21,494 bases of DNA, taken from a virus. This document shows positions 1,894-4,915 of the stretch, in pieces. The DNA lies in IMG/VR virus record IMGVR_UViG_3300020215_000050, positions 1 through 21,494 of that record. One strand, 5' to 3'. The notes under the pieces are model-generated. The model was not told the origin of the DNA and did not search any database. It saw nothing but the letters and a program-made list of their open reading frames with translations. The position numbers and the translations under genes are program-made. Positions within the stretch are counted from its first letter, which is position 1. Each line of letters starts with the position of its first letter.

Positions 1894-2691
1894 CTAGAAG
1901 CCGAAAGTGAGAACCGCCTCGATCGACTTGAACAGACCCGGATCGAGCTCGTGATCGAACCCAGAGCTGTCCTCAACCTCGACGTCTCCGACGTGTAGGA
2001 CGCGACCCCGAACGCCGAGGGCGATGTTCTCGGTCAAGCCGACGTCGACGCCCGCCATCGCCTGGACGGCCAGGTTGGTGTCGCTGTCGTCAAGCCGCCA
2101 GCCGCTCACGCCGTCTATGGTGACGTCGTTGATGTTGACCCAGGCAGCGCCTACGCCCACGCCGACGTAGGGACGGATGACCCCGCCTACCGGAAAACCG
2201 AGGATGGCGTTGACCATGGCCGTCAGGATGGAGACGTCCCCGCCCAGGCCGAATGTCGGACAGTCCACACCCGGGATATCGCATAGATCGACCGAGATGT
2301 CGTCCGTCGGCGTATCGACGGAGAGCACGAGGCTCTCGAGGGTAGCCTCGTCAAAGTCCTGGCGCATCCAGCCGAGTTCGCCCTCGATCGCTAGCATGCC
2401 GTTCAGCTGATAGCCGATGGCGCCGCCGATCCTGGGTCCGCCGTCCGTGTCGACGGATGCCTCGGCATCGAGGCTGATGCAGACCTCTTTGGCCGTGCCC
2501 TCATCGAAGCATTCGCTGAAAATGCCGATGTCGTCGTCCCACTCCTCCCCGAACTTGTAGCCGCCGTGGATCGAGGCGTACCAACCCGAGCTCTCCTCCA
2601 CAACCGGCTCCTCAATTATGTCGGCAGCCATCGCTGGGGTCCCCAGCAGCAGCACCGCACTGACCAACGCGGTCGTCCCCAGTAGTTTCAT
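1894..2691 (-). CDS. outer-membrane beta-barrel protein (OmpA-TM/Omp25/RopB-like)
   Basis: GGAGG RBS before the ATG at 2691; signal peptide ending AMA-ADI; amphipathic beta-strands (GWYASIHGG, IGGAIGYQ, IRPYVGVGVGAA, QAMAGVDV); C-terminal Phe. Confidence 0.9.
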   Translation of the reverse strand: MKLLGTTALVSAVLLLGTPAMAADIIEEPVVEESSGWYASIHGGYKFGEEWDDDIGIFSECFDEGTAKEVCISLDAEASVDTDGGPRIGGAIGYQLNGMLAIEGELGWMRQDFDEATLESLVLSVDTPTDDISVDLCDIPGVDCPTFGLGGDVSILTAMVNAILGFPVGGVIRPYVGVGVGAAWVNINDVTIDGVSGWRLDDSDTNLAVQAMAGVDVGLTENIALGVRGRVLHVGDVEVEDSSGFDHELDPGLFKSIEAVLTFGF

Positions 2692-3112: not shown

Positions 3113-3453
3113 CCCTTCACCTTCCGGTTCTTCTGGTAGCGCTTGTACTCGCGCTCGGCCCTGTCGTTCAGCTCGGCGCCCCTGCCCTTGAGGAAGTGGG
3201 CGGCGCTCGCGCCGGCGACCGTGTGGGCGACCTTGGATGCCTGCTTGTGTCGCTTTGCCTTGTGGAGCAGCCTGGCCTTCTCGCCGGCGTCCGAGGTCTG
3301 TGCGGCCTTCTTCTCGAGCTTGCCGCCGGCCCTGCCGTGGTCGCGGCCCCGTGCGATCAGGTCGCTGGCCTTGAAGTTCCGCTCGTGTTCACCCGAGTAG
3401 CCGCCCCTGTTGCGGATGTAGACCTCGCTGACGAACTGGCGGAGCGTCTTCAT
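3109..3453 (-). CDS. putative internal (head-packaged) protein, N-terminus MKTLRQFVSE
   Basis: 114 aa, basic; CTS-like N-terminus; GGGGA RBS. Confidence 0.8.
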   Translation of the reverse strand: MKTLRQFVSEVYIRNRGGYSGEHERNFKASDLIARGRDHGRAGGKLEKKAAQTSDAGEKARLLHKAKRHKQASKVAHTVAGASAAHFLKGRGAELNDRAEREYKRYQKNRKVKG

Positions 3454-3517: not shown

Positions 3518-3706
3518 TCAGCCCTCGAGCTCCTGGTTCATGACGGAGGACCCGCCCAGTCCCGTCGGACAGCCCGATCGGGTGCAGACGTATCCCATGA
3601 CGCCGGATATACTAAGCCCGCACTTCGGGCAAGTCAAAACGGTCCGCTCGGCCAGGAACTCCGGCTCGGAACGGTCGGTGTACTCGGAAAGAAACTCTTT
3701 GGACAT
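3518..3706 (-). CDS. small Cys4 (CPKC...CTRSGC) zinc-finger-like protein
   Basis: 62 aa; GAGGGG RBS right after the tRNA-Tyr CCA; contains EFLSE and EFLAE motifs. Confidence 0.7.
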   Translation of the reverse strand: MSKEFLSEYTDRSEPEFLAERTVLTCPKCGLSISGVMGYVCTRSGCPTGLGGSSVMNQELEG

Positions 3707-3724: not shown

Positions 3725-3815
3725 TGGTGGGCCCGCGAGGAATCGAACCTCCCGTCAGCCACCCCGCTTATTTCATAGACCGAGGTTTTACAGACCCCTG
3801 CGGGGAAACGGACCC
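3725..3815 (-). tRNA. D-armless tRNA-Tyr(GTA)-like RNA with long variable region
   Basis: Acceptor GGGTCCG/CGGGCCC-A-CCA; anticodon arm GGGGT-CTGTAAA-ACCTC; T-loop TTCGATT; only TTTCCCCGCA in place of the D-arm. Confidence 0.8.
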
Positions 3816-3838
3816 GCGCTATAGTAGTCGTCGGCCAT
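3788..3838 (-). CDS. 16-aa mini-ORF MADDYYSAGPFPRRGL reading into tRNA-Tyr
   Basis: AAGGAG RBS 8 nt before the ATG, directly after a late promoter box; stop TAA lies in the anticodon loop. Confidence 0.4.
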   Translation of the reverse strand: MADDYYSAGPFPRRGL

Positions 3839-3857
3839 GGAACAAGCTCCTTTGGGC

Positions 3858-3865
3858 TATTTAGG
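3858..3865 (-). promoter_or_regulatory. T4-type late promoter variant (CCTAAATA)
   Basis: TAAATA core upstream of the tRNA-Tyr and internal-protein genes. Confidence 0.55.
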
Positions 3866-4578: not shown

Positions 4579-4691
4579 CGGGAGGGGCTCTTTCAGGGAA
4601 AGAGGGGCGGGGAGGGTAGTGCCTCCCCGCCTGCCCGGGACCACACTCACTACAGGTTTACCCGGGACTACCCGACTTATGAGGCCGGGGT

Positions 4692-4768
4692 TGGTGCGCC
4701 TGGGTGGACTCGAACCACCACGACTCTGGTTTCTGAGACCAGCGACTTTACCGTTTGCCCACAGGCGC
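4692..4768 (-). tRNA. tRNA-Leu(CAG), short variable loop
   Basis: GCGCCTG/CAGGCGC-A-CCA; CTGGT-CTCAGAA-ACCAG; GGTGG-TTCGAGT-CCACC. Confidence 0.92.
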
Positions 4769-4915
4769 GCTTGAGGGCGGGGATGCCGGGAGCTACCCGG
4801 CTTCACGTCGTGAACCCCTGTCACTAGCCCGTGGCGACCGGGCGTGGAGGGTGCTTGTCAAATCGGCAGCGTCTCAGCTGCCGAACAGAGGGCCGATGCC
4901 CTCGCATCCTCCAAT

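Follow-up and report, generated by a model that had tools for sequence, protein, structure and literature searches.

Tandem tyrosine codons in a mini-ORF that runs into a non-canonical phage tRNA(GUA): a possible member of a class of cognate-codon leaders

Can a phage tRNA gene carry, directly in front of it, a short reading frame that gauges the demand for the tRNA through codons of its own amino acid? A locus in the window, i.e., the whole stretch of 21,494 nucleotides analysed here, raises this question. This stretch forms the first 21.5 kb of a viral contig of 123 kb; the contig has 64% G+C, its DNA polymerase and helicase are phage T4-like, and nearly all of its genes lie on the minus strand. 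Within the window, a frame of 16 codons features two adjacent Tyr codons, enters a tRNA(GUA) gene, and terminates in the anticodon loop. The original prediction likened this mini-ORF to an attenuator leader peptide, and allowed that it might instead be the chance stump of a gene interrupted by the tRNA. Our answer, which we give a little less than an even chance of being correct, is that the mini-ORF is a real, ribosome-accessible leader, that it belongs to a recurrent class of leaders, rich in cognate codons, before the tRNA genes of phages and tRNA arrays, and that it couples the supply of Tyr-tRNA to the maturation of the phage tRNA-Tyr.

All elements of the leader, namely the late box, Shine-Dalgarno (SD) sequence, start codon, Tyr codons, tRNA, and stop, were confirmed on the minus strand as they had been read, and the predicted succession of CTAAATA, an AAGGAG ribosome binding site (RBS), and an ATG...TAA frame is exact, at 3864-3788. 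The features of the locus are as follows.

3864-3858, minus strand: T4-type late box CTAAATA, which heads a transcript with the mini-ORF, the tRNA, and the small late ORFs downstream
3852-3847, minus strand: SD sequence AAGGAG, recognized by sequence, with the ATG 8 nt further downstream
3838-3788, minus strand: leader ORF of 16 codons, reading Met-Ala-Asp-Asp-Tyr-Tyr-Ser, then nine codons from the tRNA body, then TAA
3838-3836, minus strand: start codon ATG, followed by GCC GAC GAC
3826-3824 and 3823-3821, minus strand: tandem Tyr codons TAC and TAT, at -11 to -6 nt relative to the tRNA 5′ end
3725-3815, minus strand: non-canonical tRNA(GUA) with encoded CCA, an 8-bp acceptor stem, a 4-bp T stem, a long variable arm, and no D arm
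3800-3805, minus strand: 5′ half of a pseudoknot, CCCCGC, which replaces the D arm and pairs with 3762-3767
3789-3791, minus strand: anticodon GTA, of which T35-A36 together with A37 form the stop codon of the leader ORF
3790-3788, minus strand: leader stop TAA, equal to U35-A36-A37 of the loop CTGTAAA (3793-3787)
3762-3767, minus strand: 3′ half of the pseudoknot, GCGGGG, in the variable-arm loop and next to a conserved TGG
3518-3706, minus strand: next ORF, 62 aa, with its own SD sequence GAGGGG, beginning 19 nt past the CCA end on the same late transcript

The five nucleotides AGC GC are the whole gap between TAC-TAT (3826-3821) and the first base of the tRNA, G3815, which bears out the claim that the two Tyr codons lie just before the tRNA 5′ end. 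The frame starts at -23 and stops at tRNA positions 26-28. Since a 62-codon ORF with its own RBS follows 19 nt after the CCA, the tRNA lies in the 5′ part of a late mRNA; this ORF has no PHROG match. Deleting the tRNA (91 nt with CCA) in thought would add six codons to the mini-ORF, which would then stop at a TGA sharing bases with the start codon ATG of the next ORF (TGATG, 3708-3704, minus strand); this overlap may go back to an earlier, coupled arrangement, or be due to chance.

CTAAATA occurs three times in the window, vs 0.26 expected, and genome-wide it is found nine times on the minus strand vs once on the plus strand. The shorter TAAATA has 28 occurrences on the minus strand and 3 on the plus strand, the majority immediately ahead of starts, and most of these boxes are followed by a purine-rich SD and an ATG 2-50 nt downstream. 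The consensus of T4 late promoters is TATAAATA. The box in front of the mini-ORF is likewise TATAAATA-like, strand-biased, and located just upstream of late starts, and because of its likeness to the T4 consensus, CTAAATA at 3864-3858 presumably acts as a T4-type late promoter. Furthermore, the start site of the mini-ORF is not chance-like: the 123-kb genome has 10 coding-strand sites with AAGGAG followed at 5-10 nt by ATG, 9 of which open ORFs of at least 57 aa, with the leader ORF (16 codons) being the only short one. The leader alone is weakly folded (-5.7 kcal/mol vs -8.0 for shuffles). At several other CTAAATA boxes of the whole genome (107059, 93959, 80601, 71549, and 54866, all on the minus strand), an ATG follows 2-7 nt on with no SD, which suggests leaderless or nearly leaderless late mRNAs. 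In some T4-like relatives (L058 at 4533 on the minus strand, L015 at 4913, and L178), the odd tRNA is preceded at a distance of only 1-2 nt by a TAAATA or TATAAATA box, a position that would place the late transcription start inside the tRNA.

The tRNA that the mini-ORF enters is called neither by ARAGORN nor by the Rfam tRNA model at gathering score, and the Rfam family it matches best is tRNA-Sec (22 bits). It has the acceptor stem, discriminator A73, CCA end, and T loop (TTCGAWT) of a bacterial-type tRNA-Tyr, and its 7-nt anticodon loop features U33, GUA, and A37. The D arm with G18-G19 is missing, and the anticodon stem follows the 8-bp acceptor stem after only 9 nt. Pattern scans retrieved ~90 distinct homologues from viral contigs, metagenomes, bacterial tRNA arrays, and one cultured phage, Pseudomonas phage Rembedalsseter (L001, 1501-1588, minus strand), in which the odd tRNA is unannotated; scanning for the motif in the variable loop proved too unspecific, with one extra member gained. 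In an alignment of 41 homologues, 93.9% of the cells of the proposed structure are paired, and the covariation score is 0.697, vs 0.183 in shuffled controls and no more than 0.148 when partners are slid. The acceptor stem is 99.4% paired in these sequences, with an eighth pair that is GC in 28, UG in 9, AU in 2, and UA in 2, and the pseudoknot helix is 97.6% paired, with changes on both sides in four of six pairs. The fold energy of the tRNA alone is no better than that of shuffles (z -0.03), and an exact 25-mer of the tRNA was unmatched in metagenomes. The covariation in the 41 homologues indicates that the tRNA at 3725-3815 is real but non-canonical. The predicted tRNA-Tyr thus appears to hold in function-like terms, with its GUA anticodon, but its fold is unusual and escapes both programs.

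The anticodon GUA is also found in four viral-contig matches (L033, L045, L051, and L105) to a pattern that leaves the anticodon free. In a tRNA array on the Lacipirellula chromosome, the odd GUA gene is located among 27 tRNAs called by ARAGORN, none of which is for Tyr. The family comprises ~90 loci (e.g., L068 2429-2517 and L109 5110-5199) of phage and tRNA-array tRNA(GUA) in which pairing with the variable-arm loop replaces the D arm. Its members feature an 8/4 acceptor/T geometry, with a second subgroup at 7/5, and are missed by ARAGORN and Rfam. Geometries of 8/5, 9/4, or 8/4 are known from tRNA-Sec and allo-tRNAs. Like these, the window tRNA has a 12-bp acceptor/T stack (8+4) and a long variable arm, but it differs from them in its GUA anticodon and in the D-region strand, which pairs with the variable-arm loop in place of forming a D arm. 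All known bacterial tRNAs have been stated to be cloverleaves (PMC11551756), and no published description of the odd tRNA fold was found in the literature.

Is the leader a constant companion of this tRNA? An SD-like motif, a start codon 6-8 nt on, 1-3 codons, and then Tyr-Tyr precede 4 of 31 unique odd-tRNA homologues (the window, L068, L004, and L001), where shuffles predict 0.03. The same arrangement of RBS, start, and Tyr-Tyr was found in none of the 60 homologues of a second, independent batch, in none of 68 canonical phage tRNA-Tyr genes, and not in the T4-like relative L058. The layout totals 4 of ~91 odd-tRNA homologues, with 87 of ~91 lacking it. The original prediction had proposed looking for an RBS, ATG, and Tyr codons before homologous tRNAs; they are mostly not kept, and the Tyr leader is not a trait of the odd-tRNA family. 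The Tyr pair of L004 lies at -11 to -6, as in the window, and that of L068 at -12 to -4. In the latter (2408-2517), an SD, an ATG, and three TAT codons occupy the 40-nt spacer of a tRNA array, with the TAT run ending 3 nt upstream of the odd tRNA. L001 has a near-perfect sigma-70 promoter with the ATG in its spacer, and the Tyr codons stem from its -10 box. TAYTAY was also considered as a general upstream element and discarded, as it occurred 4 times vs 1.06 in the first set (P = 0.014) but once vs 1.58 in the second.

With the phage's own Tyr usage of 3.3%, at least two Tyr in six codons have P = 0.015 and an adjacent pair has P ~0.005 by chance; by itself, the Tyr-Tyr pair is weak evidence. 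As predicted, the stop at 3790-3788 is the TAA of the anticodon loop. However, this is largely a by-product, because a GUA anticodon followed by A37 always spells U35-A36-A37, and some upstream start-codon frame ends at the loop stop in 31 of 83 phage tRNA(GUA) loci. The loop stop is trivial and is not evidence of more than chance.

A different line of evidence comes from leaders before other phage tRNAs. In the L068 array, other tRNAs too are preceded by mini-ORFs with SD and ATG, all of them rich in residues that match the tRNA downstream: tRNA-Arg(UCU) is preceded by four Arg, the pair tRNA-Arg(UCG) and tRNA-Gln by Arg and Gln, and tRNA-Pro by Pro-x-Pro. The wider sample consisted of the 2,034 unique tRNA genes in all retrieved loci, which had been fetched for leader-unrelated reasons. 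A leader was defined by an SD core 4-10 nt before an ATG, a frame that ends no further than 30 nt upstream of the tRNA or within it, and no overlap with an upstream T loop; 49 leaders with 465 codons pass. These contain 53 cognate residues, vs 24.4 +/- 5.3 by label permutation (P < 5e-5) and 33.3 +/- 4.5 in dinucleotide shuffles. The other two frames of the same leaders hold 23 and 28 cognate residues, and the reverse complement holds 24.7 per frame. Without the SD, ATG frames show only a 1.13-fold level of cognate residues, and GTG/TTG frames with an SD show no excess. The excess is thus about twofold and specific to the ORF frame, the SD, and the ATG. With L068 and every Tyr case left out, 36 cognate residues are still found vs 19.5 (P = 0.0019), and permutation at the level of clusters, a stricter test, yields 64 vs 40.4 (P = 0.0008). 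The class signal comes from roughly a dozen leaders, and dropping the six strongest loci yields P = 0.067.

Several of these leaders are striking on their own. In L232, Met and seven Ser codons of five kinds end exactly at tRNA-Ser(GCU) (4677-4787), and in L170, five Lys are found in 11 codons before tRNA-Lys. A prediction was set that further homologues of the L232 tRNA-Ser carry a Ser leader, and a scan was made with the tRNA body alone. The one new homologue, L303, the third of that tRNA-Ser, meets this expectation with an SD, an ATG, Pro-Asp-Asp, and an unbroken run of five mixed Ser codons. Previously unused arrays from these records feature six Arg codons (AGR and CGN) before three consecutive tRNA-Arg (L304), His-His and Glu before tRNA-Glu and tRNA-His, Asp-Ile before tRNA-Asp and tRNA-Ile, Lys and Trp before tRNA-Lys and tRNA-Trp, and Pro-x-Pro before tRNA-Pro. 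The tRNAs behind these leaders pass Rfam gathering. Members of the class are seen in L068, L232, L303, L304, L311, L187, and L170. The leaders end between ~5-10 nt before the tRNA and well inside it (~15-20 nt before in the case of an L068 leader to a Ser(CGA) tRNA), with their cognate codons ~4 to 35 nt upstream. The window ORF shares this build, with an SD and ATG frame that enters the tRNA and two Tyr in six codons. One tRNA region of Caulobacter phage phiCbK was uninformative on leaders, and no published description of leader ORFs before tRNA genes was found in the literature. Cognate-codon leaders before phage tRNAs seemingly make up a wider class that has gone undescribed in papers.

Leaders of differing isotypes also start alike (window 3838, L187 1573, L303 7337 on the minus strand, L068 2408, and L136). 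Their shared starts are Met-Ala-Asp-Asp, Met-Pro-Asp-Asp, and Met-Asp-Ser, often with Asp directly before the cognate run; Met-Ala-Asp-Asp is common to the window leader and the Pro leader of L187, while Met-Pro-Asp-Asp opens the Ser leader of L303. The similarity of these N-termini may reflect common design or common origin. Of eight leaders able to reach the anticodon loop, six stop there, where one third are expected (the window, L004, L068 and L304 for Arg, and L109 and L311 for Lys), at U36-A37-R38 or U35-A36-A37. Some of these are homologous to each other, and the count offers a weak hint that termination within the anticodon loop is favoured. The Ser(CGA) gene of L068 (~2205-2300, plus strand) is an uncalled tRNA-like gene with a long variable arm, which scores 26.4 bits in Rfam, just under the cut-off; the ORF before it has an SD and ATG, 14 codons, and the ending Ser-Arg-Ser-Ser.

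Leader-peptide sensing is established for amino-acid operons (PMC1183508, PMC3082878). The window leader shares with the ribosome-mediated attenuators (trpL, hisL, pheL, thrL, leuL, ilvL, and the pheM of pheST) a short leader ORF with its own SD and start, and with the trpL type adjacent codons for the amino acid of the product, at which ribosome speed is the presumed signal. Unlike in the trpL type, the regulated product in the window is a tRNA and not an enzyme, the ORF runs into the regulated RNA, there is neither a terminator/antiterminator pair nor space for one, and the regulatory codons are only two. No terminator-like site was found, and the 5 nt between the Tyr codons and the tRNA leave no room for one. 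The leader and tRNA together fold no better than shuffles (z 0.08), and the leader-tRNA duplex of -31.6 kcal/mol is ordinary (P = 0.36; 0.63 against genomic 42-mers). A switch between alternative folds was rejected, as folding is no better than in shuffles and complementarity between leader and tRNA is not above chance. The attenuator idea is therefore sustained in part: cognate codons are enriched about twofold in SD and ATG leaders across the class, but this locus lacks a terminator, and alternative pairing in it does not exceed chance. Another parallel is found in Salmonella mgtL and mgtP (of mgtA and mgtCBR), where pausing at Pro codons in a short leader alters the downstream RNA with no classical intrinsic terminator, and which act through refolding of the leader RNA and Rho. 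The window leader is similar in having few cognate codons in a short leader, but differs in that no refolding is detectable.

In the coupling proposed here, the mini-ORF would be translated, and the ribosome would compete with RNase P and with folding of the tRNA. A bacterial ribosome covers ~12-15 nt downstream of its P and A sites; therefore, a ribosome that finishes the leader has to unwind or cover the RNase P site along with the acceptor strand on the 5′ side, and one pausing at the cognate codons halts on the threshold of the tRNA. With TAC in the A site, the leading edge of the ribosome is at about +1 of the window tRNA. If TAC-TAT is decoded fast, ribosomes would run on into the pre-tRNA, unwinding its 5′ half and covering the RNase P site until they reach the UAA of the loop. 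If Tyr-tRNA is scarce (e.g., through cleavage by a host anticodon nuclease), ribosomes would pause with TAC or TAT in the A site and the leading edge at about tRNA +1 to +5, and the tRNA body would fold and the tRNA be released. We infer from this geometry that fast decoding would disturb maturation and slow decoding would free the tRNA. The sign of the effect is uncertain, because a ribosome paused at TAC-TAT may itself occupy the RNase P site and thus hinder the enzyme. Against the coupling stand the 87 of ~91 homologues that lack the layout and the other tRNAs of the same genome: among its 11 tRNAs, an SD and ATG frame runs into the tRNA(GUA) at 3725-3815 only, and the other ten have no such leader.

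The main rival to the coupling is a serious one, although we consider it less likely than the coupling. The start site would be a relic or an accident, in which the late promoter and RBS are real (e.g., as what is left of a gene start that was displaced by the arrival of the tRNA in the late-operon leader), the 16-codon frame is without function, and chance accounts for the two Tyr codons. The 87 of ~91 homologous tRNAs without the layout agree with this, as do the automatic stop in the loop and the lack of a structural switch. Furthermore, the Tyr-Tyr pair has P ~0.01 and was singled out by a reader scanning 21 kb, and without the 91-nt tRNA, the frame would end at the TGA overlapping the ATG of the next ORF (3708-3704), as in an older coupling. 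However, a relic does not account for cognate-codon leaders that recur before other phage tRNAs far above chance, nor for the match in build between the window leader and another leader of the class, which extends even to their first residues. The gene that a displaced start would have left behind was also sought, and both a blastn-short search with the leader and a six-frame peptide-word search of the genome came up empty, with no paralogue or interrupted-gene remnant.

Two further explanations dispense with Tyr sensing. The leader might be translated for reasons independent of Tyr, such that the loading of ribosomes shields the late transcript (e.g., from Rho or RNases) or times how the tRNA and the small ORFs downstream are processed, with the Tyr codons being incidental. 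A strong SD and ATG behind a late box and the position of the tRNA in the 5′ portion of an mRNA encoding small late proteins would suit such a role, which we nevertheless regard as unlikely, since it leaves the frame-specific excess of cognate residues in such leaders unexplained. It is also conceivable, but very improbable, that TACTAT is a -10-like promoter element with a transcription start at or near the mature tRNA 5′ end, and that the Tyr codons are mere appearance. In the nearest homologue, L001, the same heptamer TACTATA does overlap the -10 of a near-perfect TTGACA-17-TATACT promoter, and the window, L004, and L068 have TAYTAY within -12 to -4. Yet a sigma-70 scan found no promoter at TACTAT in the window, while the early promoters of this phage show clear TTGACW boxes; the distance of 12-20 nt from the SD-like motif to TAYTAY fits codons and not a fixed spacer; and the Ser, Arg, Lys, and Pro leaders would remain unexplained.

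Returning to the coupling of Tyr-tRNA supply and tRNA maturation, a more general proposal can be tentatively made, to which we assign a less than even likelihood: phage tRNA genes can carry a built-in demand gauge, i.e., a leader of the tRNA's own amino acid that abuts or overlaps the tRNA, and in which ribosome speed decides folding or processing. Such a gauge would need no terminator, would sense depletion of tRNA by host anticodon nucleases, and would cover many isotypes (Tyr, Ser, Arg, Lys, Pro, His, and Trp). We know of no earlier feedback device for a tRNA gene, and a leader that reads its tRNA's own codons would, if the proposal is correct, be the first known. It would also provide a simple sensor of tRNA depletion, and would imply that there can be meaning in ORFs overlapping a tRNA gene, a kind usually dropped by annotation pipelines.

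Why phages carry tRNAs, and how these are controlled, has become an active question again since tRNA-cleaving defences were found. Phage tRNAs are known to act as counter-defence against tRNA-cleaving systems (PMC11555353, PMC10264068, PMC11464382). Destruction of tRNA-Tyr by host nucleases and its rescue by phage tRNA-Tyr have been documented, with the tRNA-Tyr of T5 countering the PtuAB of retron-Eco7 (PMC11555353). As in these cases, a phage tRNA-Tyr at the window locus would be valuable when host tRNA-Tyr is depleted, which provides a reason to sense the decoding of Tyr. Unlike the counter-defence tRNAs, which feature high constitutive expression from a strong promoter, the window tRNA has a putative sensing leader and a different fold.

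No close relatives of the phage were retrieved, and the neighbouring 114-aa and 62-aa proteins matched only zinc-ribbon-like sequences. Ten bases, GAGCTTGTTC, are common to the window leader (3841-3850) and to L110 at ~3325-3335, a contig of an alphaproteobacterial MAG in which the shared GAGCTTGTTC sits upstream of the odd tRNA; this sharing is probably due to chance. The window also has a tRNA with an 8-nt anticodon loop (TTCA) at 1459-1533 on the minus strand, and the T4-like relative L058 features a tRNA with the amber-reading anticodon CUA (4681-4754, minus strand), which ARAGORN calls as Pyl.
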